From Escherichia phage LorandFenyves_Bas91: DNA of 64,000 bases. A program made the translations under genes and the position numbers. This document shows, piece by piece, positions 32,745 to 60,466 of this stretch. Location: sequence record PQ850614.1. One strand, written 5' to 3'. Positions within the stretch are counted from its first letter, which is position 1, and every line of letters starts with the position of its first letter. Under the pieces are notes generated by a model. The model saw only the letters and a program-made list of their open reading frames with translations, did no database searches and was not told where the DNA came from.

Positions 32745-32768
32745 GAAAAAAGCCACCCGGAGGTGGCT
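32745..32768 (-). terminator. hairpin plus U-tract after SSB gene, immediately before spanin RBS
   Basis: On the minus strand AGCCACC-TCCG-GGTGGCT followed by TTTTTTCG. Confidence 0.5.
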
Positions 32769-32789
32769 AAGCTATAACAAGGAGAGTTA

Positions 32790-33536
32790 TTAGAACGGGC
32801 TAGAGTCGTCATCTTCATAAGTAGAAGCTGGTTCTTTGTCAATCGTAGGGATTGAAGGAGTAGCTTCTTTCTGCTCTGTTTCAGAAGCACGAGTAATTTC
32901 ACGACCAGCCAGAGGCATGTTCTTAGCGTCATTAGCTTGAGTAAGCAGGTTGCGCTGGAACGGGAACATCAGTTGATAGGATGCTACGTTCTCATCGGTT
33001 TCAGCATACGGTTCGAAAAATACCAGAGGGCTACGAGCTTCACCAACTGCTGCACGATATTTGGTTGGGATTGGAGAAATGGTTTTGATGGAGTTTTTAA
33101 CTTCACCAGCTTTGTTAGTGTAAGAGTTAACCAGAATGTTAACAGGCTGACCTAACAGCACATCCTTGAACCAAGACAGATCACCTTTCAGTGCTTGAAT
33201 ACTTGGGTCAATCATCTTGCAAAGATCAAGAATACCAGAGTTCTTAGCTCGTGGGTTTACATCATAACTCTTGAACTGGCAAGCCGGACGTGGTTCTAAT
33301 GCCTTACCATCGGAATCTTTACCAGTAGCATCAACACCAATCAGCTCGAAAGCCAAATCCATACGGAAAGCCGGATTCTTAGGAGTTACTGCTTTGGTCT
33401 TCGGGTCAATCCAAGGGTCACGATTGTGAACACCCAAACCTACTACACGAACGATACGTGCTTCGTATTCACCATCAGGGATTACATCGTAGTTGGATTT
33501 ACGGGAAGCAGTTGCGATAGTTGGAATCATAGACAT
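32790..33536 (-). CDS. single-stranded DNA-binding protein
   Basis: Acidic C-terminal tail ending YEDDDSSPF, compare E. coli SSB DDDIPF; position in the replication module. Confidence 0.65.
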   Translation of the reverse strand: MSMIPTIATASRKSNYDVIPDGEYEARIVRVVGLGVHNRDPWIDPKTKAVTPKNPAFRMDLAFELIGVDATGKDSDGKALEPRPACQFKSYDVNPRAKNSGILDLCKMIDPSIQALKGDLSWFKDVLLGQPVNILVNSYTNKAGEVKNSIKTISPIPTKYRAAVGEARSPLVFFEPYAETDENVASYQLMFPFQRNLLTQANDAKNMPLAGREITRASETEQKEATPSIPTIDKEPASTYEDDDSSPF

Positions 33537-33595
33537 ATTTTAATTTCCTTATTTAATTTGAAAGATTGTTGCTCTCTTTGAGCGGTTATGTATAG

Positions 33596-33604
33596 TATAC
33601 ATTA
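33596..33604 (-). promoter_or_regulatory. TAATGTATA element on minus strand, candidate promoter for SSB and spanin operon
   Basis: Plus strand reads TATACATTA; lies about 60 nt upstream of the SSB start in a 416-bp AT-rich intergenic region. Confidence 0.4.
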
Positions 33605-33667
33605 CGCTTATACCGATAAGAGTACTATATAATATAAGTATCTTTGGTAGTAGATATAACACACTAG

Positions 33668-33676
33668 TAATGTATA
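33668..33676 (+). promoter_or_regulatory. TAATGTATA element on plus strand in the intergenic hub
   Basis: Exact 9-mer pointing rightward, antisense to the leftward genes; function unclear. Confidence 0.3.
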
Positions 33677-33952
33677 TATTGTATAGCTGATAAAGTTATT
33701 GCAGGCTTGTATATTGGGCAATTCACAGAATCCCTTGCAAGTACCGAAGGGCAGGAGCCACCTGCGAGATAAAAATAGAGAATTAAGGAATCCTTGATTT
33801 AGGTTGTAGGGACTCCTAGGGACTTTGATTCTCTATTTAAAAGAATATTAATTACTTATTACCTAAATAATTAACTAACTTACTTAAACCAAATTCAAGA
33901 ATAATAGATAAAAAGATTATTCCTAAGAAAGCTAAAAAGTAAAGGATATAAG

Positions 33953-34135
33953 TTACCATTCAAGTAAACCTTTAAAGTTAGTTTGTTCTACTATCCTCTG
34001 ATAATGAAGATTAGAATCAGCTTGTTTCTTTAACATCTCATTATATTGATCTCTGATAGAGTCTTTATAAACTACAGGTTCTTTAAATACTGAGATCTTC
34101 TTTTTCTCAGAGTTCAGAGGTATATTTTCTTTCAT
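33953..34135 (-). CDS. hypothetical protein
   Basis: 60 aa ORF at the start of the leftward block after the intergenic hub. Confidence 0.35.
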   Translation of the reverse strand: MKENIPLNSEKKKISVFKEPVVYKDSIRDQYNEMLKKQADSNLHYQRIVEQTNFKGLLEW

Positions 34136-34589
34136 ATTCCACTCTATTTTTAGTTGCTTCTTCTAAAGTATCAAAAGACCCTAAGTACTTAGTTCTACCC
34201 TTAATTGAGATGTTTGATATGTATTTACCCTTTCTGTTTAGATAAACACCTTTTACACCAGAGGTGTTATTAATGTTCAACCCTTTATTCCAAGAGTTTA
34301 CTTCATTATTAACTTCCCTTAGATTAGAGATAGAGTCATTTGAAGGGTTTCTATCAATATGGTCTATCTGATCTTCAGGTAAATAACCCTTAGCAGAGTA
34401 CCAAATCACATGATACCTGTACACTTGATGGCCTTTAATCCTTATCAGGCATCTTCCGTCTTTTCTGATAGACCCTACTTCCATTCCTTTCCTACATTTT
34501 GTCCCGTTATGAACCTTCCAGAAAACTTTCCCAGAAGATAAATCACAATCAAAATATTTGTCAAGGAGTTCCTCTATCATATCAAACAT
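34107..34589 (-). CDS. HNH homing endonuclease with AP2-type DNA-binding domain
   Basis: HNH core QIDHIDRNPSNDSISNLREV plus C-terminal GVKGVYLNRKGKYISNISIKGRTKYLGSFDTLEEA (AP2-like). Confidence 0.7.
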   Translation of the reverse strand: MFDMIEELLDKYFDCDLSSGKVFWKVHNGTKCRKGMEVGSIRKDGRCLIRIKGHQVYRYHVIWYSAKGYLPEDQIDHIDRNPSNDSISNLREVNNEVNSWNKGLNINNTSGVKGVYLNRKGKYISNISIKGRTKYLGSFDTLEEATKNRVEYERKYTSEL

Positions 34590-34792
34590 CCATCACAGGT
34601 AAGATCTCCGAGAAGGGACAGTGATAACAAACGAGACTGCTCATCGCTATACAGTTGATCAATCTCTTCTTTAAGTTTTGCCAACTCAATGAAATTGATA
34701 AGTTGACCATGTTCAAGACAGTCTGTTTTTAGTATAAATAAAACTTCAGCGTCTGTTGAATCTTCACTTGAATATTTATCAATGTATTCCAT
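34577..34792 (-). CDS. hypothetical protein
   Basis: 71 aa acidic ORF. Confidence 0.4.
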   Translation of the reverse strand: MEYIDKYSSEDSTDAEVLFILKTDCLEHGQLINFIELAKLKEEIDQLYSDEQSRLLSLSLLGDLTCDGCLI

Positions 34793-34794
34793 TT

Positions 34795-35016
34795 TTATGC
34801 CACATCTCCTTGTTTGTTGTTAATAACATCCAGTGCTGTATACGCTTTACCTGTTCCTAAGTATTCTAGAACTGGAGGACTCTTCTTTTCTTCAGCGACT
34901 ACATAAGGTGTGATCTTCCCTTTCAGTACAGCCTGAGATGCTTTAGCACTGTCTTCAGATATGTGAATAGTAGTAAGCCCTTTCTTTCCAATTCTATAAG
35001 TGTGAACCCAAATCAT
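34795..35016 (-). CDS. hypothetical protein
   Basis: 73 aa ORF; 2-nt gap to the upstream gene. Confidence 0.4.
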   Translation of the reverse strand: MIWVHTYRIGKKGLTTIHISEDSAKASQAVLKGKITPYVVAEEKKSPPVLEYLGTGKAYTALDVINNKQGDVA

Positions 35017-35180
35017 ACTTCTTCCTTATATTCCCAATTTCTTTCATAATACCCAGAGTTGTAGTTTAGGGCGCACCTCTCGGCCTCTTCTATGTCGTCA
35101 GTGTTTAGGATATTTACCCATCCTCCAACTTCATCAAAACCTTCTTCTACTTCGTTAACCCATACACTATACTTTTTCAT
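35013..35180 (-). CDS. hypothetical protein
   Basis: Trimmed from 35013..35213 to the ATG (MKKYSVW...) with GGGGAAG RBS that overlaps the upstream stop (ATGA). Confidence 0.4.
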   Translation of the reverse strand: MKKYSVWVNEVEEGFDEVGGWVNILNTDDIEEAERCALNYNSGYYERNWEYKEEV

Positions 35181-35353
35181 CGAGAAGTTCTTCCCCAATC
35201 TTTTACATAGCATCGACCGTTAACCCACTTTGTCTCTGACTTAAATTCTTGAGACAATCTCACTTCACAGTCTTCTCTACTGGCATCTCCTCCGATATCA
35301 ATCAGATACAGGAATAGAGCTATACCTAAAGCCCAAAGAATTATCTTCTTCAT
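35177..35353 (-). CDS. small membrane-anchored protein (58 aa)
   Basis: Not in the ORF track; N-terminal hydrophobic segment IILWALGIALFLYLI; start overlaps the upstream stop. Confidence 0.4.
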   Translation of the reverse strand: MKKIILWALGIALFLYLIDIGGDASREDCEVRLSQEFKSETKWVNGRCYVKDWGRTSR

Positions 35354-35742
35354 CGAATCACCAAAGGCTCTTCAGAGTACACAGGAGCGGCTATTTCTAC
35401 AGGAGGTGCTGCCCTAAGGTCATTAAGTCTTACGCCCTTCAGCATACCGTCTAGGTGGTCCTTTTTGGGGATTCCAACAGGGAAGTCGTCAATCCAGATA
35501 TCTACAAAGAAACCTAGCTGTCGGCATACCTCATCCTTCTGGACACCATTACAAAAGATGATAGGAATCTGCAAACACTCTGCATCAATCTTGATGTCAT
35601 GATTATCGTACCCATTAGGCTCTGCAAAGCGATAAGTTACAAAGCGTACATCATAGCCCTTTTCTTGCATTAATGCCACCACAGAGCGCCACAGCTTTTT
35701 ATCTGAGGTGTAAGTGTCATCGTAATCTAAACCAATATTCAT
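35350..35742 (-). CDS. HAD-superfamily phosphatase-like protein
   Basis: N-terminal DxDxT motif (LDYDDT); real start probably the ATG at 35742 with AAAGGA RBS rather than the TTG at 35760. Confidence 0.5.
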   Translation of the reverse strand: MNIGLDYDDTYTSDKKLWRSVVALMQEKGYDVRFVTYRFAEPNGYDNHDIKIDAECLQIPIIFCNGVQKDEVCRQLGFFVDIWIDDFPVGIPKKDHLDGMLKGVRLNDLRAAPPVEIAAPVYSEEPLVIR

Positions 35743-35761
35743 GTCAAATCCTTTAGACAAG

Positions 35762-35790
35762 AAAAGCCGCCCGAAGGCAGCTTCTTATTT
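35762..35790 (-). terminator. hairpin plus U-tract immediately upstream of HAD gene RBS
   Basis: Minus strand AAGCTGCC-TTCG-GGCGGCTT followed by TTCTTG. Confidence 0.5.
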
Positions 35791-35965
35791 AACTGTTCAC
35801 TTTAGCTTCAAGTGTTTCGTTTTCAATACTCAAGTCAATCACTACACCAGTAAGCTCAACGACTGCTTGGCGAAGGGCATCTTTACCCATAGAGTGTACT
35901 TGAGATAAGAAGAAAGCTTTACCTTCTTCAGTGGATAGGGTTTCTTTTAATTCAGAAGCAGTCAT
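35789..35965 (-). CDS. small hypothetical protein (58 aa)
   Basis: Not in the ORF track; ATG with AAGGAA RBS at 6-nt spacing; stop abuts the terminator. Confidence 0.4.
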   Translation of the reverse strand: MTASELKETLSTEEGKAFFLSQVHSMGKDALRQAVVELTGVVIDLSIENETLEAKVNS

Positions 35966-35974
35966 TGATATTCC

Positions 35975-36169
35975 TTATGTTATGTTATAAATTCGCATGA
36001 TTGTACCACCATTGGCTTCAATAGCAGCAACCATTTGGTTTCGTTCTTCATCCGTGTAAACTAACACACTTCTAAACTCACCTGTTGCATCAGTATAAAG
36101 GATGTTATATTTCGGAGGTGGCTTACGGTAAATACCTTCCATCACTCTTTCTCCTCTCGCTCTTTCCAC
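35975..36169 (-). CDS. hypothetical protein
   Basis: 64 aa ORF. Confidence 0.35.
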   Translation of the reverse strand: MERARGERVMEGIYRKPPPKYNILYTDATGEFRSVLVYTDEERNQMVAAIEANGGTIMRIYNIT

Positions 36170-36325
36170 AGTTCGGCTAGCTCTAGATAGAACTCAGCCT
36201 CATCAGGACGACCTTGTTCATTACAGATGGCGCTCTGACGATAACACCAATCCGATGGCATCTCTTCCACTTCAATCTCCTTGTTACGAACCAATCAATA
36301 AGAATAGTTCATTCGTCTTATTTAT

Positions 36326-36520
36326 TCACTCTACCAATGCAGGTACTTCTATCCTTTTAACTGTGAATGTCTTGTTTGGAAACTTTCGAACTAGCTCTGC
36401 TGCTTTGGTTATTGCTAAGTTCTCTGTCTCAAAGATACACAGTTGACCATTTAATGCTACGAGAGTGGAGCCACCGCTGAAGACGGCCCAAGATTCATAA
36501 TAACCACGAACACTCATCAC
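36326..36520 (-). CDS. hypothetical protein
   Basis: 64 aa ORF; 4-nt overlap with the upstream gene. Confidence 0.4.
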   Translation of the reverse strand: MMSVRGYYESWAVFSGGSTLVALNGQLCIFETENLAITKAAELVRKFPNKTFTVKRIEVPALVE

Positions 36521-36885
36521 TCAACCTCGATACTATATAGAGTTTTCAGTGTATCTTTAATCCAAGCCCGTCGTTTTGGATTCTTATGATGTGCCCCGTT
36601 TTCCCTATCTCTAAAATACTGATCACATCCGAATGGGTATGTTGGGTCCAAAAACTTTTCTTGATTAAACATATTCTTCATGTCGTCAATATCTAAATGC
36701 TTTGTGAAATAGTAATACCTCTTATAACAGCGAAAGTTGAAGCATAATCCGTGATCTTCACTAAACCATTTTGGATAAATTCCAGTCTTAGTTATTTCAT
36801 AATATTGGAGGAGGAAATCCTCCATCCCCCTCTCTTTAGCTAAACATCTCAATGTTCTGTAGATGATATTGGTTTCTTTCATCAC
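36517..36885 (-). CDS. hypothetical protein
   Basis: 122 aa ORF immediately downstream of the polymerase gene. Confidence 0.45.
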   Translation of the reverse strand: MMKETNIIYRTLRCLAKERGMEDFLLQYYEITKTGIYPKWFSEDHGLCFNFRCYKRYYYFTKHLDIDDMKNMFNQEKFLDPTYPFGCDQYFRDRENGAHHKNPKRRAWIKDTLKTLYSIEVE

Positions 36886-36890
36886 TCACC

Positions 36891-38735
36891 TTAGTGTGTA
36901 TGCATCCAGTTAAGTCCAATCTGACAATCAGATGCCAGAGGACATTCCATATTCAGATACTCGCCAGCTTTCTTAACACAAAGCTCGGTGTGCTCTTTGA
37001 GTTTCTGTACATCATTACGGTTTACTGAGAATTGACCTTCATCGTGCATATCAATTACCTTAGCACAACGAACCTTATCTTTCTCAATCCACTTGTTAAG
37101 GAACATCATAGCATATTTCATAACAACAGCACCAGCACATTGCAGGAGTGTGTTAAGGGCTTTATGAACCATAACCTTACCAGTGGCATCCCGTCTCATT
37201 GTAATCTTACGACCATCAACTCCAATCAAGTATCCTTGAGCAGCTTTCTCTGTCATACGATCAATGAGGATTGCAATACATGGATTCTCTGCCAAGAAAC
37301 GTGCTCGCATCACTGAACCTTCGTCAGCCCCACCACCTACAATTGAACCAAGCTTAGCGTCGCCAGCACCATAGTTAAATGCATAGATAAACGTCTTAGC
37401 GTTGTCACGAGTAGGAAGACCAGCAAGTTTCTGGTTGTGGGAGTGGATATCACCTTCAAGGAGAATATCACGATACATAATAGCAGAAGCTAAACCACGT
37501 TCTGCCAGAGCTTTCTTAGCTGGGTTGTTCTCTTCGATTGCCTCAGCAAGCATATCCCTACACTCTTTAATGAGGTAGTGAGCGAGCATACGAAGTTCAA
37601 GTCCAGAACCATCATACCCTAAGAATACTTCTTTACCAGCGGGTATGTAATATTTGTAAGCGCCTACAGGTTTGTCTTTCTTCCCCGGCTTACCTTTCTC
37701 GTAAATTACGTTAGTACCTTTTCGTATATAACAACCATCAGGAACAACGTTAGTAATAACGAAAGGACGAGAGTGATCACTGTCTGAGTTATAGTCAGAC
37801 TCAAACAAACTGCGACACTCGTGACCAAACAGACCACGGGAGGGAATATTAACCACGATACGATGTTTGAATCGAAAAGTCGGCGTAGCGCAGCTGTTAG
37901 CTTCTGCCGAAAGTTTACCATCTTCGCGTTCCTTTGCTATGAGTCCACTGATAAGACCTAGCCTGTGAGCCGCTACAACGCGTCTCTTAAGCAAACTTCC
38001 GACACTCCCTAGCTCACCCCCTAACCCTTCTTCAAGAGTCTCCTCGAGGTTTGTAGGAGCTGTAGGCCACTTGTTTGATGTGGCTAGTGCTTTCTTAATC
38101 TCATCAAACGTTACAGGATTACGGCGATTAGGGTTCAACCCCAAACCAAATACGTAAGCCTTCATGTAATTCTTAGTCTTAAACCTGAAATGCTTTTCTA
38201 AGAACTTCTTAATATCAGCGTCAACCATCTCGGCTGTCTGCTTCTGCTTAGCATTGCCTCGCATCCAAGCAGTATACCATGCTTGGTATGTTCCATACTT
38301 TCTCATATCTTTCTTAATTTCGAAAGTATTCCAAGGCTTCTTAGATACGTTAAACTCTGGAGGAAGAAAGCCCTCATCCATAAGAGCTTCTTTAACTCGT
38401 GCATCTTTCGATGGGTCAAAGTCTACGTATTCGACACAGGTGAAAGCTCCACCAATATCTTCTCTCTTCAGCCCAACCCTATCACAATAGGCTTGAGGCC
38501 ACTTCTGTAAAGCTCCAGACTTCTTAAATGGCTTCATGTAAGTAGAGCCATCTAATCTCATCTTAGGTAAGAGAGGAATCAACTCTCTGTCAATATTAAC
38601 AATAATCTCTTTAAGGAGGTGAACATACCACCGAGCATTTCTTCGGTTGAAACTCACTCCGTGCTTTGCTTGCTTAGAGATTATATCAGCGACAGTCATC
38701 TCTGTCAAAAATGGAAGAGCGTCCGGGTTGCTCAC
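36891..38735 (-). CDS. family A DNA polymerase, polymerase domain only
   Basis: Motif A YDGSGLELRMLAHY, motif B RDNAKTFIYAFNYGAG, motif C IDMHDEG; no 3'-5' exonuclease motifs in this ORF. Confidence 0.85.
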   Translation of the reverse strand: MSNPDALPFLTEMTVADIISKQAKHGVSFNRRNARWYVHLLKEIIVNIDRELIPLLPKMRLDGSTYMKPFKKSGALQKWPQAYCDRVGLKREDIGGAFTCVEYVDFDPSKDARVKEALMDEGFLPPEFNVSKKPWNTFEIKKDMRKYGTYQAWYTAWMRGNAKQKQTAEMVDADIKKFLEKHFRFKTKNYMKAYVFGLGLNPNRRNPVTFDEIKKALATSNKWPTAPTNLEETLEEGLGGELGSVGSLLKRRVVAAHRLGLISGLIAKEREDGKLSAEANSCATPTFRFKHRIVVNIPSRGLFGHECRSLFESDYNSDSDHSRPFVITNVVPDGCYIRKGTNVIYEKGKPGKKDKPVGAYKYYIPAGKEVFLGYDGSGLELRMLAHYLIKECRDMLAEAIEENNPAKKALAERGLASAIMYRDILLEGDIHSHNQKLAGLPTRDNAKTFIYAFNYGAGDAKLGSIVGGGADEGSVMRARFLAENPCIAILIDRMTEKAAQGYLIGVDGRKITMRRDATGKVMVHKALNTLLQCAGAVVMKYAMMFLNKWIEKDKVRCAKVIDMHDEGQFSVNRNDVQKLKEHTELCVKKAGEYLNMECPLASDCQIGLNWMHTH

Positions 38736-38751
38736 TTTATACTCCTTTAAA

Positions 38752-39174
38752 TTATTGGTAAAGTAAATCTGTAAATGCTTGGTTATCTTCTACTACATTC
38801 AACATGGTAGCTTCATCACTATAAGCCCTAACCGTCCCGTTGACAACTGTCCAAGGAGGAGGTGGAGGTGGTGTATGGTTAGCCCTAGCTTCACGAGGTT
38901 GCTCTCGTACTAAATGAGCCACAACCCTTTGGTTAGCGACTTCTTCTCTTTCTCTAATAGCTCTCTGGATATAGGCCAGCTTCATGCCCCAAGCTTCTTC
39001 AAACTCTTGAGGATGCTTATCACTGATAACCACATACTGACGTTCAGAAATACCAGAGCGAATCTCTGATAATAATTCATGGAACAAATCTAGTTCGTGC
39101 TCAGTGAGATTCATTTCAATATCATCCCACTTTAGAACTAGGAAACGGTTTTGGTGTCTAGCTGGTAATGGCAT
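38752..39174 (-). CDS. hypothetical protein
   Basis: 140 aa ORF upstream of and coupled to the polymerase gene; poly-Pro stretch. Confidence 0.45.
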   Translation of the reverse strand: MPLPARHQNRFLVLKWDDIEMNLTEHELDLFHELLSEIRSGISERQYVVISDKHPQEFEEAWGMKLAYIQRAIREREEVANQRVVAHLVREQPREARANHTPPPPPPWTVVNGTVRAYSDEATMLNVVEDNQAFTDLLYQ

Positions 39175-39177
39175 AAC

Positions 39178-39462
39178 TCAACCTCTTGGGAATGGCATCA
39201 AAAATTCCACAGCAGATTTAATTTCACTATTGATTCTTGAATCACGATAAGAGATAAACTTACCTTTGCTATCACGTAACATCACATGAGTTCTGGCTGT
39301 TTTGTGAGGGAGTAGTGTGACACTAGTTGGGATAGTATCAATCCCTACAGCGTATTTGTCAATAGTCTTACTTTCAGCCAACAGATAAGACCAAGTACGC
39401 GGTTTCTTCTCCGGGCGGTTGGGGTATGTGTCTCGAATCTGTACCATAGCTAACTTATTCAT
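39178..39462 (-). CDS. hypothetical protein, tandem paralogue A
   Basis: C-terminal half PHKTARTHVMLRDSKGKFISYRDS...FLMPFPRG is closely similar to the adjacent gene. Confidence 0.5.
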   Translation of the reverse strand: MNKLAMVQIRDTYPNRPEKKPRTWSYLLAESKTIDKYAVGIDTIPTSVTLLPHKTARTHVMLRDSKGKFISYRDSRINSEIKSAVEFLMPFPRG

Positions 39463-39463
39463 A

Positions 39464-39718
39464 TTAAACTCCTTTAGGGAATGGAATGAGATTTTCTACT
39501 GCAACACGGAAAGATTTTTCTACGTTCTTATTCTTATAAGAGATAAATTTTCCATCAGCTCCGCGAAGGAGTACGTTAGTGCGAGCTGTTTTTGGGTTAA
39601 TCTCAATCATCCGTTCGATGATCTTGTTTGATTTGTTGTGGTGGTTAGTGAAAGTCCACTTAACAACCTTGCCATCTCTGGTTACATCAAAAATATTTAC
39701 GATTTTTACAATAGACAT
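39464..39718 (-). CDS. hypothetical protein, tandem paralogue B
   Basis: C-terminal half NPKTARTNVLLRGADGKFISYKNK...NLIPFPKG is closely similar to the adjacent gene. Confidence 0.5.
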   Translation of the reverse strand: MSIVKIVNIFDVTRDGKVVKWTFTNHHNKSNKIIERMIEINPKTARTNVLLRGADGKFISYKNKNVEKSFRVAVENLIPFPKGV

Positions 39719-39786
39719 ACTTATTACCTAGGAAGTTTAGTTTGGTTTATATAAAAGAAAAGGCCACCCATTTGGGTAGCCTTATA

Positions 39787-40104
39787 TTACGATGAGCTTA
39801 AAGCTCCTTTGCGTGCTCCAGCTGCTTTTCCAGCTCGATCACCACTTTTGCCGCCGTTTGAACGGTTTGAGCTGACTGATTCAACACGTAAGTTGCTTGA
39901 CGCATTAGAGCCTCCAGACTTGACAGCTCGTTTGTGTCCAACGTCTTTACCTCTGACAGCAGCTTTTCCATCGCGCTTTTCAACGATGCGACGTGCACGG
40001 TGGCGCTGAGCATCTCCGCTCTTGCTCCCAACGCCTGTCTCACCACGGGCAATTGCGGTACGTCTTTCTTGTGCATAATCTCTCTTTCCTACATGGTCTG
40101 CCAT
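39787..40104 (-). CDS. basic low-complexity protein, possibly KGG-repeat stress-protein-like
   Basis: Strong AAGGAG RBS; G-rich first codon positions support this frame over the overlapping 39798..40076 ORF; N-terminus MADHVGKRDYAQERR resembles YciG/YmdF-type proteins (low certainty). Confidence 0.45.
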   Translation of the reverse strand: MADHVGKRDYAQERRTAIARGETGVGSKSGDAQRHRARRIVEKRDGKAAVRGKDVGHKRAVKSGGSNASSNLRVESVSSNRSNGGKSGDRAGKAAGARKGALSSS

Positions 40105-40160
40105 TTAGAACTCCTTAATATATCAGTGTACACTAAGGAGTATACATTATAAGTTACTGT

Positions 40161-51705: not shown

Positions 51706-51707
51706 TG

Positions 51708-52146: not shown

Positions 52147-52148
52147 AC

Positions 52149-54179: not shown

Positions 54180-54182
54180 TTT

Positions 54183-54212
54183 CTAATCCACCTGAAGGGT
54201 AAACCCTTTCAT
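54183..54212 (-). other. 9-codon upstream mini-ORF in frame with the amidotransferase, ending in TAG
   Basis: ATG AAA GGG TTT ACC CTT CAG GTG GAT TAG, then AAA ATT TGT; own AAGG Shine-Dalgarno 8 nt upstream. Confidence 0.35.
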
Positions 54213-54258
54213 CTAATTAACCTTTAAATTGTGCCCCTTTATCAGAGGCACCCATTGA

Positions 54259-55362
54259 TTACAGCGCTTGCTCTAACTGATTTTCCAGATGGTCTGGAAT
54301 GTACCCTGTGATATTGCTATCACTGTGACCAGACTCACGTAGTAAGTCAAAAATAGCACGAATACGTTGTTCTGGAGCGTGTCTTACTTGAGATAGGTCT
54401 GCTGTACGAAGCATAACCAAAATCTCTTGATACAAGTTGTTAGCGTTCCCTCGAACATATCCAAGGAATCCATAGAAGTCTGACATAAGACGTAAGTCAA
54501 CAAGAACCTCTCCGTTGGAGTTGGTTCGACGTAAACGAATACGACCAGACTGTTCTACTTCATGAGAACGGCAATACAAAACATCACGGGCCATACAATA
54601 CCCTGAATGCAAATCAGATTCATCCAGATTGTAATCCAGAGGAAGGTAAGGAAGCATTGGGGCAAATCGTACAGTATTTAAGTGCTCAATAAACTGATCA
54701 TTGCTCATATCTGCGTTATCTAAAGCCAGCTTCTTCAACATCAAGAAGCGGTTAACCAGATTGAGAAGTTGACCACGTTTCCACTTAGGCTCACTGATAC
54801 GGAACTCAATTGAACCGTATTGGGCAAGTGGCAGAAGGTTCAGAGATGTATATTTATCCCATGAACGAACCAGACGGTTGAAGAATTCTTCACCATCGTA
54901 GTTAAATGCGTCAGAGGCATTCATTACCTGTGCTTGTACCACTGCAAACGCAGGGCAGAAATTGCTACGGTAACGATGGTAGCCTGAACACTTGAACAGC
55001 ATCTTTTCATAGAAGGTCCAAGCAAGGATGGTCTTCTTGAGGATATTACTATCAGCATCCCTCATATCCATATGAACGTGAGTAGAGCAACGCCAAGTCC
55101 CCTCGGCGTGCGATTCAGCTACTGCTTCACTCAGGTTGTTGATAGCGTCTAACAACTCCTGTCCGTTGTAAGGTCGTGAACATACCATTTCACAACCGTT
55201 ACGCAGGGAACCATCCTCTGTGCAATCCCACATATCTGCTTCGATATGTTCAGAACCTTCGAGTTCAAGCTCAATACCGACACCGCACTGAAGTGCAATT
55301 GAACTATGCGCCTCAGTTAAACGACCTTCTCGATATCCAAAAGTTTGCGCTACAGTTGTCAT
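54259..55362 (-). CDS. glutamine-synthetase-like amidoligase (Amidoligase_2 / GCS2-like)
   Basis: GVGIELELEGSEH, EDGSLRNGCEMV and STHVHMDM match the G.E.E...EDGS...E...HvH pattern of COOH-NH2 ligases. Confidence 0.55.
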   Translation of the reverse strand: MTTVAQTFGYREGRLTEAHSSIALQCGVGIELELEGSEHIEADMWDCTEDGSLRNGCEMVCSRPYNGQELLDAINNLSEAVAESHAEGTWRCSTHVHMDMRDADSNILKKTILAWTFYEKMLFKCSGYHRYRSNFCPAFAVVQAQVMNASDAFNYDGEEFFNRLVRSWDKYTSLNLLPLAQYGSIEFRISEPKWKRGQLLNLVNRFLMLKKLALDNADMSNDQFIEHLNTVRFAPMLPYLPLDYNLDESDLHSGYCMARDVLYCRSHEVEQSGRIRLRRTNSNGEVLVDLRLMSDFYGFLGYVRGNANNLYQEILVMLRTADLSQVRHAPEQRIRAIFDLLRESGHSDSNITGYIPDHLENQLEQAL

Positions 55363-55976
55363 AACGAATCCACCAACGTAATATTATAATTGCTAAGGTT
55401 TTCAGAAATGTGATGAAAGTGTTCCAGAAGTCGCATCGGTTGCTGACCGTAAGAGTCACGAGGTGCTTCCAGATCTACTTGTCCTACCAGTGCACCTTTA
55501 TAATGCACTTTACCATCTGTAGGATTGATGTAAATATAACGAGTAACCAATCCATCAAATTCAGGATTGAACAGACTGTAAACCATTTCACCAGAGATCG
55601 AACGACCAATCCCCGGAGCGTTTCGAATCTTGTTACCCATCAAACCCTTCGCTCTCTGACGAACAGGATTGATATGAGTCCAGCTTACAGTGTTACCGTT
55701 ATGGAACAGATAACCAACATCAGGTGATTCAAGAATCAAGGTTGGGTCGAACACTGGAATATTCATCGTAGTGTTTCGGAGATTCCCATGCTCGTTCTTG
55801 TACCACTGCTCTACAACAAAATACAGAGCCTGTTCTGCTTCATGCGAGAAGTCATCGCTGCGGAAGTTACCGCTCTGCTCAACACCAATCACAAAACACG
55901 GAAGGTTGATATTGCCTGCTCGTTTAGCAATCCATGTACCATTATAGTAATGAGAAAAATCAGCTACTAAGCTCAC
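55359..55976 (-). CDS. hypothetical protein in the amidoligase cluster (possible peptidase or amidotransferase-like partner)
   Basis: 205 aa; translationally coupled between the two amidoligase-like genes; no confident motif. Confidence 0.45.
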   Translation of the reverse strand: MSLVADFSHYYNGTWIAKRAGNINLPCFVIGVEQSGNFRSDDFSHEAEQALYFVVEQWYKNEHGNLRNTTMNIPVFDPTLILESPDVGYLFHNGNTVSWTHINPVRQRAKGLMGNKIRNAPGIGRSISGEMVYSLFNPEFDGLVTRYIYINPTDGKVHYKGALVGQVDLEAPRDSYGQQPMRLLEHFHHISENLSNYNITLVDSL

Positions 55977-55985
55977 GATAACCTC

Positions 55986-56792
55986 TTATGCTACCTGAAG
56001 GAGTTTGATCTGCTGGTCAGCTTCTTTAACGTTGTTCCCGTTAATGATTTCATGAAGCTTCTCAATCGGAAGGCGAGAGTGCAATGCCATCAGAGTGGAC
56101 ATATCACACTGCTGAACAACCTTGTCAACCTGATCGTAAACAAACTTACGGTTTTCACGATCACTAATCCAGAAGTTAGACAGAGAACGGTATTCAATAC
56201 CATAGTCTTTATAACGGATTGCAGATGCTTTACCGTAGAGTTCTTTACGGCGAGTATCTTTGTCCATAATTACTGCTGGGAGAGACAGGAAGTAGTCACA
56301 CAGCACACCCAGCATCATCTGAGTTTGCAGAGTGATATCCAAAGCACCAACTACGCCAAGATGTACGTGACCACCGGCAGTACGAAGTCCCTTATTCTGA
56401 GAAGTCGGGGATGGGTTTTTCTGACCAGTGAAGGCGTTGAAATCAGGAGTGCACCCGAAGATGAACGCTGATTCATTAAAGGTCTTCATCTCTTCTTCAG
56501 TGAAGATGTGAGAGCTAACACCCGGAGCTGTTTCCATGTCCAGTTTGTTCAGGACATTATTGGTGAGATCAATACCACGTTGCATGTTATCGTTAAACGC
56601 TTCAAAACCGCTCTGTGGGTCAATATCAAACTCAGCCAGTACGTTGTCCTCTTGGAGACGAACATCCTTAGCCAGAGCGATCTTATCGTCCTTAGAGCAG
56701 CCTAATAAACCGGCTACAGAAGTGATGATACCATTGCTAGTACGAACAAACATTTCAGGGTCAGAGCCGATAAGGAATTTGCGCTTAGTCAT
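55986..56792 (-). CDS. second glutamine-synthetase-like amidoligase paralogue
   Basis: LIGSDPEMF, LAEFDIDP and RTAGGHVHLGV show the same E-rich early motifs and HVH motif. Confidence 0.45.
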   Translation of the reverse strand: MTKRKFLIGSDPEMFVRTSNGIITSVAGLLGCSKDDKIALAKDVRLQEDNVLAEFDIDPQSGFEAFNDNMQRGIDLTNNVLNKLDMETAPGVSSHIFTEEEMKTFNESAFIFGCTPDFNAFTGQKNPSPTSQNKGLRTAGGHVHLGVVGALDITLQTQMMLGVLCDYFLSLPAVIMDKDTRRKELYGKASAIRYKDYGIEYRSLSNFWISDRENRKFVYDQVDKVVQQCDMSTLMALHSRLPIEKLHEIINGNNVKEADQQIKLLQVA

Positions 56793-57756
56793 TATAATAC
56801 TCCACTAGTTCAGAAAAGAGAGATGAGATTGTGTTACCAACTTCTTCAAGAGTAAGACCGGAATCTGCTCCAGTTCTTTGAATCAGTCGGGCTGTAAAGT
56901 TTTGTACTGTAATGTTTCCCAACTTGTCGTCTATTGCTTCACGTTTGTGACCATAACAGTTGGACCAGAGTCTTAACCACTCTGACATTGTTTCATACTC
57001 GTCCGGGTCTTGATCTTTAGCACGAGCAAATCTTCGTAAGGCATCTTGGTTATGGTTACGAACATAACCATTCTCGTTGTCGCCAACACCGAAGGGGTTT
57101 TGAACCCATACTTGCTTCGTGTATTCATCAGAGTCTACAACCAAAGGAAGGAATGCTGCTGCTGACATATTGTTGTTAATAACAATAGAGGTGCTCTCGC
57201 TACTCCCATTGGCTCTTCCTCGTTGAGACCATCCACCGAAGAAGTCACGACCCAACCCAGCTAACACTAGAGCGATGCCGATGCGTTTACGCTTCAGCCA
57301 CTCTTCCCTGTCTTCAATTCCTTCTGCTAGGAAATCCATTCCACGATATTGCCCTTCCAGAATACTACGAAAGAGCATAAGTCCTGTGAAGATCTGATCT
57401 GCTGGATGCTCACGAAGGTTGACAGCAACACTATTCGCTGAAGTGATCGTAAATACGTCACGATAGCAAGACATGGAGTTCATAATGTCTGCTGTTTCAA
57501 CCAAGTTCTTTTCAATATCAGATGCAACATGACCGTGAAAAGAGTGAGTCCAGTAATTCAACATCTCCAGTTGCAAGTTGATATCACGGTTGAAGCGACG
57601 ATAACGCCCTTCTTCCGAGATAACTTCACCATTAATGTCATTTACACACTGGCCTTGCATGTAGTTGTGGATACCGAAGCACCCACGACCTAAGAACTTC
57701 TGTTCCCCTAAATCCTGTTGAAGATTAAGAGGTACGATCGTTGTGGAGATTGACAT
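56785..57756 (-). CDS. hypothetical protein in the amidoligase cluster
   Basis: 323 aa, overlaps the upstream gene by 8 nt. Confidence 0.45.
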   Translation of the reverse strand: MSISTTIVPLNLQQDLGEQKFLGRGCFGIHNYMQGQCVNDINGEVISEEGRYRRFNRDINLQLEMLNYWTHSFHGHVASDIEKNLVETADIMNSMSCYRDVFTITSANSVAVNLREHPADQIFTGLMLFRSILEGQYRGMDFLAEGIEDREEWLKRKRIGIALVLAGLGRDFFGGWSQRGRANGSSESTSIVINNNMSAAAFLPLVVDSDEYTKQVWVQNPFGVGDNENGYVRNHNQDALRRFARAKDQDPDEYETMSEWLRLWSNCYGHKREAIDDKLGNITVQNFTARLIQRTGADSGLTLEEVGNTISSLFSELVEYYND

Positions 57757-57766
57757 AACTAACCTT

Positions 57767-58963
57767 TTATTTTCCTAAAAATAATCCGCTCATAATACCA
57801 TCCCACTCAGAGGACGGAATCACTGAATACTCCGAACTTTGGTCCAGAGTTCCGCTACTGAATCGCTGAACAATATTATAAATATTGAACATATCTTTAG
57901 TCTCAGCGCGATAAGCGTAGACTAATCTGTCAGCTGTTCTTTCATCTTTAGATACCCGACGAGCAAAGGTAACCAGAAGGTTGTCACCTTTGAGTATTTC
58001 TGACTCATCTTTTACTAGATCAGGGTGCATAACCGGCAAGAACATTGAGTTGTTCACTCGTAACTCTGCTGTTTCATCATTCTCATAATGAATCCATTTA
58101 AAATCTTCATCACGAAAGTGACCGCATCCATCTCTGTATGACTGTTGACGCCAAGGCACTTGAAATGCTTCAGCGTATTTATCAGCCATGCCAACCGTAA
58201 ATAGTGACGCTGGGAAAATACAAGCATCCCAATCGTTACCAACCAGAGTTGCTTTCTTTTCGCTCAAGAGGTTAGTGTAAGTGCTAACCATTCGTGAGTA
58301 AACATAAGCCTGAAGGATTGTCCAGCCTTCAACCAACCATTTATGGAGGAAGGTTTCAACTTGACTCTCTTCATCTTCACAATAGAAGGTTCGGTCTAAC
58401 ATCAAATAGAACAGACAACGATCAGCAGGGATATTCTCAGTTGCTACCCCCATAAAACCTTTATCGTGCCAGCGTAAACAGGAGGGACGATCTTTGTCCA
58501 CAAATGCTTCCATAGCTTCCAGTACAGCACGAGGTGTGGTTCGGTGTTCAGGGTTTTTGTCGTTCCAACGTTCGATGTTATTTTTAGGAGGTGTGTCTTC
58601 ATCTTCATATGAACACCAACTCAAAGCTTCAGCTACGTGCTTTTCATCACGCCAACGTCTAAAGCCTAACATCTTCATATGAGTTCCAGAGTTCCAGATA
58701 TGCTTAATACTGCTCATATCCATCTCTCGACTTAATAAGAACTCTTCCCCATCAGCACTACGAACGTTAGCATCTTCATGCCACACTCGAACGTGCATGT
58801 TCCATCCATGAGTTGCCTCATACATGTTAGGGTCGAAGTAGTCATCATCTTCGTCGTCTTCATCAACGCCACCATTATAGTTGCGAAGCTGAAGGAACCC
58901 ATAACAAGGAGGGTTGACCGTTAAAACATTACCTTCAGTATCTTCTAATGTTACTGGAAACAT
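57767..58963 (-). CDS. hypothetical protein in the amidoligase cluster
   Basis: 398 aa, acidic N-terminal stretch, several Cys and His residues. Confidence 0.45.
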   Translation of the reverse strand: MFPVTLEDTEGNVLTVNPPCYGFLQLRNYNGGVDEDDEDDDYFDPNMYEATHGWNMHVRVWHEDANVRSADGEEFLLSREMDMSSIKHIWNSGTHMKMLGFRRWRDEKHVAEALSWCSYEDEDTPPKNNIERWNDKNPEHRTTPRAVLEAMEAFVDKDRPSCLRWHDKGFMGVATENIPADRCLFYLMLDRTFYCEDEESQVETFLHKWLVEGWTILQAYVYSRMVSTYTNLLSEKKATLVGNDWDACIFPASLFTVGMADKYAEAFQVPWRQQSYRDGCGHFRDEDFKWIHYENDETAELRVNNSMFLPVMHPDLVKDESEILKGDNLLVTFARRVSKDERTADRLVYAYRAETKDMFNIYNIVQRFSSGTLDQSSEYSVIPSSEWDGIMSGLFLGK

Positions 58964-58974
58964 TATACCAACCT

Positions 58975-59337
58975 CTATTGGTTTTTAATCAACTCAATCG
59001 ACTTACGGATATAAAGAATATCTCGGAAGTTTCGATAGTTGTTCATAAATTGGTGCTTCTGGAAAGTAGCTTCTTCCAGCGCTTTCTTTGCTTCTGCGTA
59101 GCTTTTACGGGCAAGATGTACAACCCGTTCTGGTAACATGTTTGCATGACGGATGACATACTTGTGAGCTTTCATGTTGCTTTGCTCACGAGCAATCTTA
59201 CCTTTAGCAACTTTGATACCATTTGCAATCCAAGCAAGTTCTTGCTCAAGCTCATCGTTGGACATTCCACCGAGGTTTGATGCAACCTTGTTCAGAGTTT
59301 CAATATTAACGTTGCCCTTGATGGGACGTGTATTCAT
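58975..59337 (-). CDS. hypothetical protein
   Basis: 120 aa helical ORF. Confidence 0.45.
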   Translation of the reverse strand: MNTRPIKGNVNIETLNKVASNLGGMSNDELEQELAWIANGIKVAKGKIAREQSNMKAHKYVIRHANMLPERVVHLARKSYAEAKKALEEATFQKHQFMNNYRNFRDILYIRKSIELIKNQ

Positions 59338-59339
59338 AC

Positions 59340-59492
59340 TTACTCCTGTTGTTTACACTCGTCAATAACCCACTGATAAGTGGATTGCCCAGAAAAGAAA
59401 CACTGAATAAATCCAGATGTTCTCTGCGTTACCAGTGCTAGTGCACAAATCACTATCGCTGCTGCTAGCAGTTTTAAATCTAATTTAGACAT
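59340..59492 (-). CDS. small membrane protein (50 aa)
   Basis: Not in the ORF track; MSKLDLKLLAAAIVICALALVTQ...; GAGAGGG RBS-like sequence; stop abuts the next start. Confidence 0.4.
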   Translation of the reverse strand: MSKLDLKLLAAAIVICALALVTQRTSGFIQCFFSGQSTYQWVIDECKQQE

Positions 59493-59511
59493 ATTCCCTC
59501 TCGTTGAATTT

Positions 59512-59536
59512 AAAAAAGGACTCTCCGAAAAGAGTC
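59512..59536 (-). terminator. hairpin plus U-tract immediately upstream of a gene start
   Basis: Minus strand GACTCT-TTTCGG-AGAGTC followed by CTTTTTT. Confidence 0.55.
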
Positions 59537-59718
59537 AAGCTTTAAATACAAAAAGATATTACCCAATATCTGTGGATAACCTGCTCTTAAAATATCTATC
59601 CGACGGATGTTCGAGGGATGTTCCTCTCCCTAGCATCGGCCCCATACGGGAAATATATTAAGATTAGGTTAGTTGAGTCAGAATAACTCATATAGCCCTC
59701 CGAAGAAGGCTATAGATG

Positions 59719-60186
59719 TTACTCTATCTTAACTGAAGGACAATACTTCTCTTTCTTGCTGCGATACATAACAACAATCCAGTTTGAATCACGACGCTCT
59801 TTCTTACGTCGTTTCTTTTCAGCACGAGTTTCATATGTGCTAGTTCGGTGGTCACGGTATATTCCACGAAGTTCATAAAATGCCCAACCACCACCAAACA
59901 CTACACCAGCCAAAGCAGCCAAAGATGAGGCACCAAGAGCAGGGGCAGCGAACCATGTCCACCAGTCAAAGGTTGACACGTCGTTGTGCCCGAGGAGTGT
60001 CCCACCTACTCCAGTAAGTGCCGCACATATAACAGATAAGAATCCAGACAGTATAACAAAACGCAAAACTGTTCGCCAGAAGTATTCACAAAAGTTAGTC
60101 ATGTTGTCCCAATAGGAATCAGAGAGACTTGACGTAGCTTTGTTGAATCTGTGCAACCATCCGTTCTTATTAACCTTAATCATCAT
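59719..60186 (-). CDS. membrane protein
   Basis: Two or three hydrophobic helices and a basic C-terminal tail. Confidence 0.5.
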   Translation of the reverse strand: MMIKVNKNGWLHRFNKATSSLSDSYWDNMTNFCEYFWRTVLRFVILSGFLSVICAALTGVGGTLLGHNDVSTFDWWTWFAAPALGASSLAALAGVVFGGGWAFYELRGIYRDHRTSTYETRAEKKRRKKERRDSNWIVVMYRSKKEKYCPSVKIE

Positions 60187-60416
60187 TCGCCTTTCTTAGC
60201 ACGATCTTTGGCAGTTTTACCGGTGCGAATGCGATGGGAAACGTTAACCAGAGTGCCACCATCAACTACGGTAACGCTCTTGTTTTTAGCCAGATCGAAC
60301 ACAGTTTTCTCCGTGCCACCCAAGCGAATTTGCTTAGGCTCACTGAAGGTTTGGGTTGATTTGGATTGGAACTGGAACGGTTGACGGATTGCATCAATTG
60401 CACTTACTTTAGACAT
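60183..60416 (-). CDS. hypothetical protein
   Basis: 77 aa ORF with AAGGAA RBS. Confidence 0.45.
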   Translation of the reverse strand: MSKVSAIDAIRQPFQFQSKSTQTFSEPKQIRLGGTEKTVFDLAKNKSVTVVDGGTLVNVSHRIRTGKTAKDRAKKGE

Positions 60417-60430
60417 AGGGGAAATTCCTT

Positions 60431-60466
60431 AAAAAGTCATGGCTGCGTAGAGGGAATTCCCTACGC
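60431..60466 (-). terminator. hairpin plus U-tract immediately upstream of a gene RBS
   Basis: Minus strand GCGTAGGG-AATT-CCCTCTACGC (about 8 bp stem with one bulge) followed by CTTTTT. Confidence 0.45.

Follow-up and report, generated by a model that had tools for sequence, protein, structure and literature searches.

Intercistronic hairpins in described systems

Intrinsic terminators of Escherichia coli and its phages consist of a GC-rich stem, a loop of 4–5 nt and a U-tract directly 3′ of the stem, all on the transcribed strand. In bacteriophage T4, C(UUCG)G hairpins reportedly occur between the cistrons of the mRNA, as described by Tuerk et al. in 1988, and these hairpins are often viewed as stability or processing elements. 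The intercistronic RNase III sites of T7 (R0.3, R1.1 and others) are interrupted hairpins of about 20 bp or more that lack U-tracts, and E. coli RNase III requires roughly two turns of helix. With a stop codon close by, the lambda tR2 terminator loses almost all activity, and termination peaks once more than 30 bp separate the two (Li et al. 2016; PMC4824070).

The window analysed here, a stretch of 64,000 nucleotides from Escherichia phage LorandFenyves_Bas91 (PQ850614.1), comes from a phiEco32-like podophage (Kuravirus) with 96–98% identity to published genomes. Its intercistronic hairpins have the build of intrinsic terminators, but most lie within operons at 2–9 nt past a stop codon, and are hence expected to be leaky, and in two (sites 10309 and 60466) no proper U-tract adjoins the stem. 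With the T4 hairpins they share extra-stable UNCG-type tetraloops and an intercistronic place on the mRNA strand of a compact genome, whereas the phage lineage is another one and most of the hairpins carry a U-tract that gives them the look of full terminators. As with the T7 sites, they are intercistronic hairpins of a podophage with long polycistronic transcripts; unlike those sites, they have short perfect stems, tetraloops and U-tracts. The short spacing after the stop codon is that of the tR2 study, which concerned one terminator in a reporter and from which we infer to the phage sites.

Hairpins between genes of the window

The first-pass annotation had named six GC-rich hairpins with a U-tract, each followed by a Shine-Dalgarno sequence (SD) and a start codon with no room for a new promoter. 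All six are in the sequence, exactly or within a few bases of where it had placed them:

10309-10324 (element 10309-10327), plus strand, between the tail-fibre genes gp14 and gp15: hairpin GCUCCC-uucg-GGGAGC, then UUU; SD from 10328, directly after the UUU; ATG at 10340, 15 nt past the stem.
17193-17211 (element 17193-17221), plus strand, between gp19 and gp20: hairpin AAGGGGC-uucgu-GCCCCUU, then UUAUUGUUUU; stop codon 4 nt upstream; SD at 17222; ATG at 17232, 20 nt past the stem.
32768-32751 (element 32746-32768), minus strand, between gp40 and gp39 (i-spanin): hairpin AGCCACC-uccg-GGUGGCU, then U5; stop codon 21 nt upstream; SD GGAG at 32741-32738; ATG at 32732, 18 nt past the stem.
35785-35762 (element 35758-35785; site 35784), minus strand, between a 58-aa gene and gp47: hairpin AGAAGCUGCC-uucg-GGCGGCUUUU, then CUUG; stop codon 2–3 nt upstream; ATG at 35742, about 19 nt past the stem.
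59536-59519 (element 59512-59536), minus strand, before gp90: hairpin GACUCUU-uucg-GAGAGUC, then C and U6; ATG of gp90 at 59492, 26 nt past the stem.
60468-60443 (element 60431-60468; site 60466), minus strand, upstream of gp93: perfect 10-bp stem UUGCGUAGGG-aauucc-CUCUACGCAG; U5 run starting 7 nt past the stem; ATG of gp93 at 60416, 26 nt past the stem.

An SD and a start codon do follow each of the six, the start codon lying 15–26 nt past the stem, and the lack of room for a promoter also holds: neither the gp36-type motif TAATGTATA nor a sigma70-like promoter was found between these hairpins and the next start codons. The description as a hairpin with a U-tract is apt for the canonical sites 17193, 32768, 35784 and 59536, and less so for the other two. 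With only UUU, 10309 would be a weak terminator at best; at 60466 the distance of the U-run from the stem means that the hairpin is not a canonical terminator, and this atypical structure is probably no terminator. Probably, both terminate very weakly or have a mainly structural or stabilising role.

The earlier list was also incomplete, with eight further sites of the same class in the window:

1548-1568 (element 1548-1577), plus strand, between the terminase and portal genes: hairpin with U-tract.
6798-6821 (element 6798-6830), plus strand, after gp12: C(UUCG)G hairpin with U-tract; the late promoter P13 comes next (motif 6853-6861).
12518-12531 (element 12518-12535), plus strand, after gp15: short hairpin GCCCC-uucg-GGGGC, then UUUU.
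23752-23786 (element 23752-23795), plus strand, after gp25: 15-bp hairpin with U-tract; its apical part holds the motif of late promoter P26 (23765-23773).
28241-28268, both strands, between the convergent late (plus) and middle (minus) gene clusters: bidirectional hairpin.
39783-39760 (element 39752-39783), minus strand, directly after gp58: hairpin with U-tract; middle promoter P58 has just this one gene downstream.
43334-43306 (element 43298-43334), minus strand, behind gp67, where the P68-gp68-gp67 unit ends: hairpin whose U-tract is weak.
61794-61775, minus strand: hairpin of the same class.

All fourteen have the GC-rich stem and small loop of an intrinsic terminator (by definition about 5–14 bp and 3–8 nt) on the transcribed strand, with free energies from −7.1 to −21.3 kcal/mol. 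A U-tract of at least 4–5 U in 8 nt, starting within 0–2 nt of the stem, is present at 17193, 32768, 35784, 59536, 1548, 6798, 23752 and 39783 and absent at 10309 and 60466. At eight of the nine sites that follow a gene, the stem begins 2–9 nt after the stop codon.

Strong intergenic hairpins without any U-tract also occur, at 50059-50034 (−16.5 kcal/mol) and 54251-54231, and some intercistronic hairpins of this genome therefore clearly serve another purpose, for example stability.

Enrichment and loop sequence

A strict scan (stem of at least 5 bp, ΔG of −7.5 kcal/mol or lower, at least 5 T in the 8 nt right after the stem) returned 15 matches in the window, 8 on the plus and 7 on the minus strand, against 1.6 ± 1.2 and 1.5 ± 1.1, or about 3 together, in dinucleotide shuffles. 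Seven of the 15 are intergenic and on the sense strand, in a window with less than 5% intergenic DNA. A second set of hairpin scans gave 27, 23 and 21 matches where 13.5, 14.6 and 14.4 were expected. The loops are also distinctive: sense intergenic sequence (2,907 nt) has 7 copies of CTTCGG and sense coding sequence (about 61 kb) has 15, an enrichment of about 10-fold (odds ratio 9.8, p = 4e-5), and antisense intergenic sequence has none. C(UUCG)G or close variants are found at 6798, 10309, 12518, 17193, 32768, 35784, 59536 and 59714, giving UNCG-type tetraloops at at least eight sites, with the loop variants UCCG at 32768 and UUCGU at 17193.

Conservation in related phages

In relatives at 46–72% protein identity, a sense-strand hairpin with a U-tract lies 1–17 nt after the stop codon and 16–30 nt before the start codon, and on this comparison the architecture is clade-wide. 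Structure is conserved over sequence. After gp40, three distant relatives carry three unrelated stems, each followed by a U-tract and then an SD, and the latter two persist even where the downstream gene differs; the position of 32768 is kept with unrelated stems in relatives at 67–70% amino-acid identity. In locus L026 the 43334 hairpin has given way to an unrelated one, whose U-tract is good. phiEco32 has the same hairpin-SD junction as 35784, but with a different small gene downstream. Compensatory changes are found in the four stem variants of 6798, in 17193 (GGGGC to GGGAGC, yielding GGGAGC/GCUCCC), in 59536 (U-G to G-C or C-G) and in two pairs of 10309 (GCCCUC/GAGGGC), where the U-run is always just 3 nt. 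The 60466 hairpin is missing in Bas87-type relatives, which have another gene upstream.

Stems that combine G-U pairs with compensatory change point to selection at the RNA level. The U-tract is kept at 39783 and 6798 even though the next SD is 41–73 nt away, so that it is more than a translational enhancer, and the relatives argue that it is selected for itself. Close relatives differ little, so that part of the conservation of the hairpins is shared ancestry.

Several orthologous sites are publicly annotated as (predicted) terminators in Kuravirus Paul (NC_070992), SU10, SU7 and Moazamivirus 7-11. In Paul, this applies to 32768, 17193, 6798 and the convergent site 28241 (on both strands), the terminator lying right ahead of an annotated RBS. 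Table S2 of SU10 lists 1548, 6798 and 28241, and the 59536 homologue is a terminator in Salmonella phage 7-11 and in SU7.

Promoters and read-through

The phage is transcribed wholly by the host RNA polymerase, with sigma70 early and then with the phage sigma factor gp36 and gp79. Known middle and late promoters are limited to P6, P13, P26, P40, P58 and P68, and gp36 promoters are known only upstream of genes 6, 13, 26, 40, 58 and 68 (PMC4331800; PMC4281155); P26, within the 23752 hairpin, is one of those identified in the literature (PMC4281155; PMC4331800; PMC12276001). The exact motif TAATGTATA is located upstream of genes 13, 26, 40 and 58, a version with one mismatch, AAATGTATA, precedes gene 68 (44274-44266), and gene 6 is outside the window. 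Downstream of each phage-sigma promoter in the window come one or two genes and then a hairpin of the class, an arrangement whose probability by chance is roughly estimated at 0.0006–0.002:

P13, gp13 and gp14, hairpin 10309.
P26, gp26, hairpin 28241.
P68, gp68 and gp67, hairpin 43334.
P58, gp58, hairpin 39783.
P40, gp40, hairpin 32768.

With so few known promoters, the genes past the hairpins must be reached by read-through, and they include the essential genes for the tail fibre gp15, holin, endolysin, gp20 to gp25, DNA polymerase and spanins. E. coli RNA polymerase carrying gp36, together with gp79, halts at rrnB T1 in vitro (PMC12276001), and the phage's polymerase is therefore terminator-sensitive. 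The searchable literature yielded no transcript 3′-end or read-through data for the Kuravirus group.

A conserved structured RNA at 59.5–59.7 kb

The 59536 hairpin is the 3′ terminal hairpin of a larger element, identified from two alignments, alifold and pair counts:

59510-59716, minus strand: conserved structured non-coding element of about 200 nt.

At its 5′ end is a UUCG hairpin (59714-59691). Three covarying hairpins then lie within a long-range helix (59671-59658 with 59590-59577), and the terminator comes next, with an A/U-rich stretch ahead of its hairpin and U6. In the pair counts, 98.9% of cells are paired and 11 pairs are changed on both sides, against 4.1 ± 1.6 in shuffles; the folding z-score is −3.7. 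Full-length copies are present in 103 phage records from two phage families. Sequence comparison found no conserved promoter of its own for the element. Searched with the Rfam 15 covariance models, the window has a single match, a tRNA at 63453-63525, and positions 59510-59716 have none, the best E-values (0.13 and 4.3) falling far below the gathering scores. In its length, covarying structure and hairpin-U6 end this element alone resembles terminator-ended small or cis-acting RNAs such as HK022 put; it differs from them in matching no Rfam family by sequence or by model.

Function of the hairpins

The hairpins are likely leaky intrinsic terminators that double as 3′-end stabilisers and have been pushed up to the following RBS as the genome became compact, a reading based on sequence features and their comparison. 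The first-pass annotation had offered leaky terminators that grade expression along operons as one of several possibilities, and this is the best supported: canonical shapes lie on the transcribed strand, U-tracts outlive exchanges of the stem, and read-through is needed. It had also proposed RNA stability sites, which are compatible with termination, since a terminator hairpin also stabilises the 3′ end and the two roles are not exclusive; a function as 3′-exonuclease barrier probably adds to termination. That the hairpins are mainly stability or processing elements instead of terminators, acting as barriers to 3′ exonucleases once an endonuclease has cut or stabilising the next cistron from its 5′ side, is unlikely. 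The UNCG-type tetraloops and the sense-strand excess of CTTCGG would suit such a role, the UUCG tetraloop having first been found in T4 mRNA (PMC4371310), as would the conservation of 10309, never beyond UUU, and the hairpins without U-tracts at 50059-50034, 54251-54231 and 60468-60443; an exonuclease barrier needs no U-tract, however, and here the U-tract persists through stem swaps and without a nearby SD. Processing as in T7-type phages, in which RNase III would release stable monocistronic pieces from the polycistronic RNA, is favoured only by the location between cistrons and by the phage setting. Stems of 6–11 contiguous bp with loops of 4–5 nt and no internal loop, the longest hairpin reaching 15 bp (23752-23786), do not have the structure of a T7-type site of about 20 bp with an internal loop, and the adjacent U-tracts would be left without a role, making this reading highly improbable.

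The proposal of regulated attenuators, with read-through switched by a phage factor or a cis-acting RNA, is decidedly improbable. Essential genes must be expressed through the terminators, and many of these lie downstream of the conserved structured RNA in the same direction of transcription, so that the roughly 200-nt RNA could, speculatively, act as an antiterminator in the manner of HK022 put. However, the late plus-strand operons have terminators but lack the element, transcription from the middle promoters P68, P58 and P40 begins past it, it resembles no Rfam family, known antitermination RNAs included, and the polymerase with gp36 and gp79 still halts at rrnB T1 (PMC12276001). Minimum-free-energy folds of the hairpins with their downstream sequence contain only the terminator stem, with the SD free and no mutually exclusive antiterminator pairing; attenuation is a possibility at 59536 through the structured domain upstream. 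Signals at the DNA level, such as palindromes for protein binding, recombination or replication, or chance by-products of composition, are equally as improbable as RNase III sites. The apex of 60466 is a perfect DNA palindrome (GGGAATTCCC) and a perfect DnaA box lies within the 59.5-kb element, but the T-run lies 3′ on the coding strand in every case, CTTCGG is found 7 times in sense and 0 times in antisense, the G-U pairs of the stems are valid in RNA only, and the shuffles exclude chance.

For leaky termination, the minimal intercistronic spacer would be ordered as stop codon, 2–9 nt, GC-rich stem with UNCG-type tetraloop, U-tract, SD and start codon. A fraction of polymerases would terminate at each hairpin, leaving a 3′ hairpin that shields the upstream message from 3′ exonucleases, and the others would read through and supply downstream genes with a smaller dose of transcript. 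Because the stems begin so close to the stop codon, the ribosome ending the upstream gene would cover the 5′ arm and block the hairpin when translation keeps pace, making termination leaky; a spacing this short may even leave the elements with hardly any termination in vivo. That polymerases do stop at these sites, how efficiently they do so and how this is coupled to translation is what we infer from these features. The abutment on the RBS is an outcome of genome compaction and no special RBS-linked device, since hairpins of the same class also lie 41–73 nt from a start codon (39783 and 6798). The hairpins are of an ordinary terminator type, conserved in relatives and partly annotated already; the exception is the 59536 element, a covariation-supported RNA of about 200 nt, closed by a terminator, that appears to be undescribed.

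Genome Identity and Transcription Programme

By sequence comparison, the window derives from a phiEco32-like podophage of C3 morphotype (Kuravirus, Gordonclarkvirinae), with 96-98.7% identity to phiEco32, SU10, CHD5UKE1 and others across 10-25 kb. Its genes form two blocks of opposite orientation:

1-28233, + strand, structural and late genes
28423-64000, - strand, early and middle genes

Three reports on phiEco32 (PMC4281155, PMC4331800, PMC12276001) describe a phage without its own RNA polymerase, in which early genes are read by host RNA polymerase (RNAP) with sigma70, and middle and late genes by host RNAP with the ECF-like phage sigma factor gp36, aided by the phage factor gp79. The gp36 promoter is given there as tAATGTAtA, one compact element lying 6-8 nt 5′ of the start site, and such promoters sit upstream of genes 6, 13, 26, 40, 58 and 68 (here P6 to P68, numbered by downstream gene). 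In vitro, rrnB T1 halts RNAP-gp36 acting with gp79 (PMC12276001); phage-directed transcription is therefore terminator-sensitive. A tRNA gene at 63453-63525 (-; Rfam 52.9 bits), within a 211-nt intergenic gap, corresponds to the tRNA-Arg annotated in phiEco32.

Hairpins at Gene Junctions

The first-pass annotation described six GC-rich hairpins, each with a U-tract, placed directly before ribosome-binding sites. All six are present in the sequence and are named here by their starts; the U-tract holds for four, which have canonical terminator shapes, whereas 10309 and 60466 are atypical:

17193-17211, + strand, canonical terminator shape
32768-32751, - strand, canonical terminator shape
35785-35762, - strand, canonical terminator shape (35784 hairpin)
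59536-59519, - strand, canonical terminator shape
10309-10324, + strand, 6-bp C(UUCG)G hairpin with just UUU between it and a Shine-Dalgarno (SD)
60468-60443, - strand, perfect 10-bp stem with a U5 run beginning 7 nt downstream (60466 hairpin)

At every site the start codon lies 15-26 nt past the stem, and a scan of the six spacers between hairpin and following SD or start codon detected no TAATGTATA-like or sigma70-like site, in keeping with the earlier suggestion that these junctions leave no room for a promoter. Sequestration of the SD by the hairpins was rejected, as the SDs are unpaired in the predicted folds.

Hairpins of this kind exceed chance expectation. A strict scan of the window returned 8 (+) and 7 (-) hairpin-plus-T-tract sites, compared with 1.6±1.2 and 1.5±1.1 in dinucleotide shuffles, with seven sites both sense-strand and intergenic; looser scans were likewise enriched. 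The genome is tightly packed, and such a hairpin occupies almost every intergenic gap of 40-70 nt; the class includes sites at 1548, 6798, 12518, 23752, 28241, 39783, 43334 and 61794 that the first-pass annotation had missed. Sense intergenic DNA carries the motif CTTCGG at about 10 times its density in sense coding DNA (7 in 2.9 kb versus 15 in 61 kb; p = 4e-5), and the antisense intergenic DNA of the window has no copy.

The hairpins are an ordinary feature, already annotated in relatives and found by standard terminator predictors. In the curated record of the Kuravirus relative Paul, the counterparts of 17193 and 32768 are each marked 'terminator' with a 'ribosome_binding_site' immediately after, and the counterpart of 6798 is annotated too, as is the convergent site. 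Table S2 of SU10 lists counterparts for 1548, for 6798 and for the convergent site, the records of 7-11 (Moazamivirus) and SU7 annotate the 59536 homologue, and the phiEco32 record carries no regulatory features. A literature search on Kuravirus transcriptomes, terminators and small RNAs returned nothing experimental, including no 3′-end mapping for the group.

Two further sites were observed. At 28284-28324, a 41-nt stretch has 95% identity to sequence in more than 120 T4-like phages of Klebsiella/Raoultella (Jiaodavirus, for example Mineola 32522-32562), in which its counterpart overlaps the 5′ end of an a-gt.2-like gene; it was rejected as the convergent terminator, which is 28241-28268, the match lying within a small gene or gene start. 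The 290-nt non-coding gap at 61716-62005 (-), 77-97% conserved in relatives, has a strong predicted fold (-87.8 kcal/mol for 308 nt) and contains the hairpin GGGAGG-auucgucc-CCUCCC (61794-61775, -), followed by CCUAUUUUAU; the AT-rich stretch between this hairpin and gene 100 might hold a promoter.

Conservation of the Hairpins in Relatives

In relatives taken from IMG/VR and GenBank phage records, a hairpin is kept at each junction and its sequence drift is compensatory. The 10309 stem changes from GCUCCC/GGGAGC to GCCCUC/GAGGGC, the 17193 stem from GGGGC to GGGAGC and the 23752 stem from GCC..GGGGG to AUC..GGAGG, and 6798 has four stem variants. At the gp40 3′ junction, the stems of three relatives (67-70% protein identity) are all unrelated, and each is followed by a U-tract and then an SD and start codon despite a different downstream gene. 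In one relative, the 43334 junction is occupied by an unrelated hairpin whose U-tract is better. In phiEco32 (homologue of 35742-35760), an extra small gene with its own SD lies between the 35784-type hairpin and gp47, indicating that the junction is reused whatever gene comes next. Distant relatives, including the 7-11 group, retain a sense hairpin and U-tract 1-17 nt past a stop codon, with the next start codon 16-30 nt further on.

The 35785-35762 (-) hairpin and one at a different junction, in the related locus L020 (10211-10243), resemble each other, both being of the form (A)AGCUGCC-uucg-GGYGGCUUUUCUUG; with the NJ01 counterpart of the 6798 terminator, the 35784 hairpin shares 91% identity across 33 nt. 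Such likeness between junctions could mean that the sites converged on an optimal UUCG terminator or that one was copied to another.

Function of the Hairpins

The first-pass annotation offered leaky terminators or attenuators, or RNA processing or stability sites as in T7-type phages. The U-tract survives replacement of the stem and is also kept at two sites with a more distant SD (73 nt from 6798, 41 nt from 39783); both observations favour termination over a role as exonuclease barrier alone. Since few middle and late promoters are known, read-through must reach gp15 (tail fibre), the holin, the endolysin and gp20-25, as well as the DNA polymerase region and the spanins (gp39/gp38, per the Paul annotation), and the terminators must therefore be leaky. 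The leaky-terminator part of the proposal is supported, whereas RNase III processing of the T7 type was rejected on stem length and shape (6-11 perfect bp, tetraloops). Palindromes acting at the DNA level are at odds with the strand asymmetry and the G-U pairs. The data also fit a stability role for the hairpins generally, likely the main one for those without a U-tract, namely 10309, 60466, 50059-50034 and 54251-54231. The latter two (both -) are strong intergenic sense hairpins of -16.5 and -12.5 kcal/mol, and are candidates for pure stability or processing elements. The closeness of the hairpins to ribosome-binding sites is best explained by compaction.

Throughout the window, every phage-sigma promoter is followed by a hairpin after one or two genes (rough chance 0.0006-0.002):

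P13, gp13/14, hairpin 10309
P26, gp26, hairpin 28241
P68, gp68/67, hairpin 43334
P58, gp58, hairpin 39783
P40, gp40, hairpin 32768

This regularity is consistent with a staircase of expression. The upstream stop codon lies 2-9 nt from the stem at eight of nine sites. In a lambda tR2 reporter, repression was nearly full at short stop-to-terminator distances and the maximum was reached only beyond 30 bp, an effect ascribed to ribosome-RNAP coupling (PMC4824070). Taken with the spacing seen here, that study suggests that read-through may be tuned by translation of the upstream gene.

Two hairpins overlap promoters themselves. The 15-bp terminator-like hairpin at 23752-23786 (+), the stem of which covaries in relatives, carries the P26 motif (23765-23773) in its apex, and the start site predicted from the literature motif-to-start distance (about 23780-23782) falls inside the 3′ arm; therefore only transcripts from upstream could form this terminator, and P26 transcripts could not. 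At gene 58, the SD UAAGGAGU pairs with the sequence immediately 3′ of the P58 motif, ACUCCUUA (40141-40134, -), in a 13-bp hairpin (40141-40110, -; -14.2 kcal/mol). Read-through RNAs would mask the gene 58 SD, and P58 RNAs, with a start at about 40134-40132 predicted from the same distance, would lack the anti-SD arm; the hairpin could thus be a promoter-dependent translational switch. In the 315-nt gap 5′ of gene 40, the P40 motif (33604-33596, -) lies in the inverted repeat TTATGTATA-T-TATACATTA (33586-33604), and an exact TAATGTATA on the opposite strand (33668-33676, +, within 33668-33685) would point antisense to the middle genes.

A Conserved Structured Element Between gp92 and gp90

The 59536 hairpin closes a 226-nt gap between gp92 and gp90 in the early region. 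There is about an even chance that it is not an operon attenuator but the terminator of an undescribed, conserved structured RNA of about 200 nt (59510-59716, -), representing a new phage RNA family. The gap has 68-73% nucleotide identity to the Salmonella phages 7-11, SE131 and pSal-SNUABM-01 (Grimontviridae), whereas proteins of the two phage families are only about 45-60% identical, and the gene 3′ of the element is gp90 in the Gordonclarkvirinae phage but an endolysin in the Grimontviridae phages. The element is full-length in all 103 matching phage records, mostly unannotated, and ranges across C3-morphotype podophages of the Gordonclarkvirinae (Kuravirus, Suseptimavirus, Nieuwekanaalvirus) and Grimontviridae (Moazamivirus).

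Two alignments of the element, with 8 and 12 sequences, yield a consistent fold that runs 5′ to 3′ from a UUCG hairpin, through a long-range helix (UAACCU..UCUUAA with UUAAGA..AGGUUA) around three covarying hairpins, to the terminator. In one of them (A1), 98.9% of cells are paired, and 11 pairs are changed on both sides versus 4.1±1.6 in shuffles (0/500) and 0-2 in slid controls, most double changes falling on one deep divergence, that separating the two phage groups, and so representing few independent events. The folding z is -3.7.

An Rfam search gave no match, and alignment with relatives revealed no conserved ORF in the element; a 32-codon ATG frame in the gap is broken in 7-11 by a stop codon and a 7-nt insertion. 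A promoter of its own is unlikely, the match CTGACT-18-TATATT being conserved in neither 7-11 nor Bas87. Pattern scans of viral, metagenome and genome collections for divergent homologues recovered the same phage groups, apart from two loci: the core match in L071 is unrelated and probably due to chance, and L083 is a mis-binned Kuravirus contig. Protein-anchored scans with gp88 and gp92 recovered close relatives only.

A DNA-level role for the element, as a DnaA box or origin, is conceivable. The DnaA box TTATCCACA has three exact copies in the window versus 0.49 expected, one of them within the element:

9336-9344, - strand, exact DnaA box
21041-21049, + strand, exact DnaA box
59571-59579, - strand, exact DnaA box

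The last is invariant in all relatives. Its 5′ portion forms one side of the conserved long-range helix, so RNA constraint accounts for this copy of the box. Judged from sequence, the element is a candidate new phage RNA, a putative small RNA or cis-regulator: it would be either a stable small RNA freed from the early transcript or a cis-acting signal to polymerase or downstream genes.

Significance

In themselves the hairpins are of small weight, since a compact phage genome transcribed by the host polymerase is expected to be punctuated in this way. The analysis contributes a concrete, testable map of how gene dosage could be set in a phiEco32-type phage. Its wider value lies mainly in the regular promoter-gene-hairpin modules and the conserved structured RNA. 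The latter is more valuable than the hairpins and, if real, would constitute a new RNA family in a model system for phage transcription, in which gp36/gp79 transcription is under active structural study.
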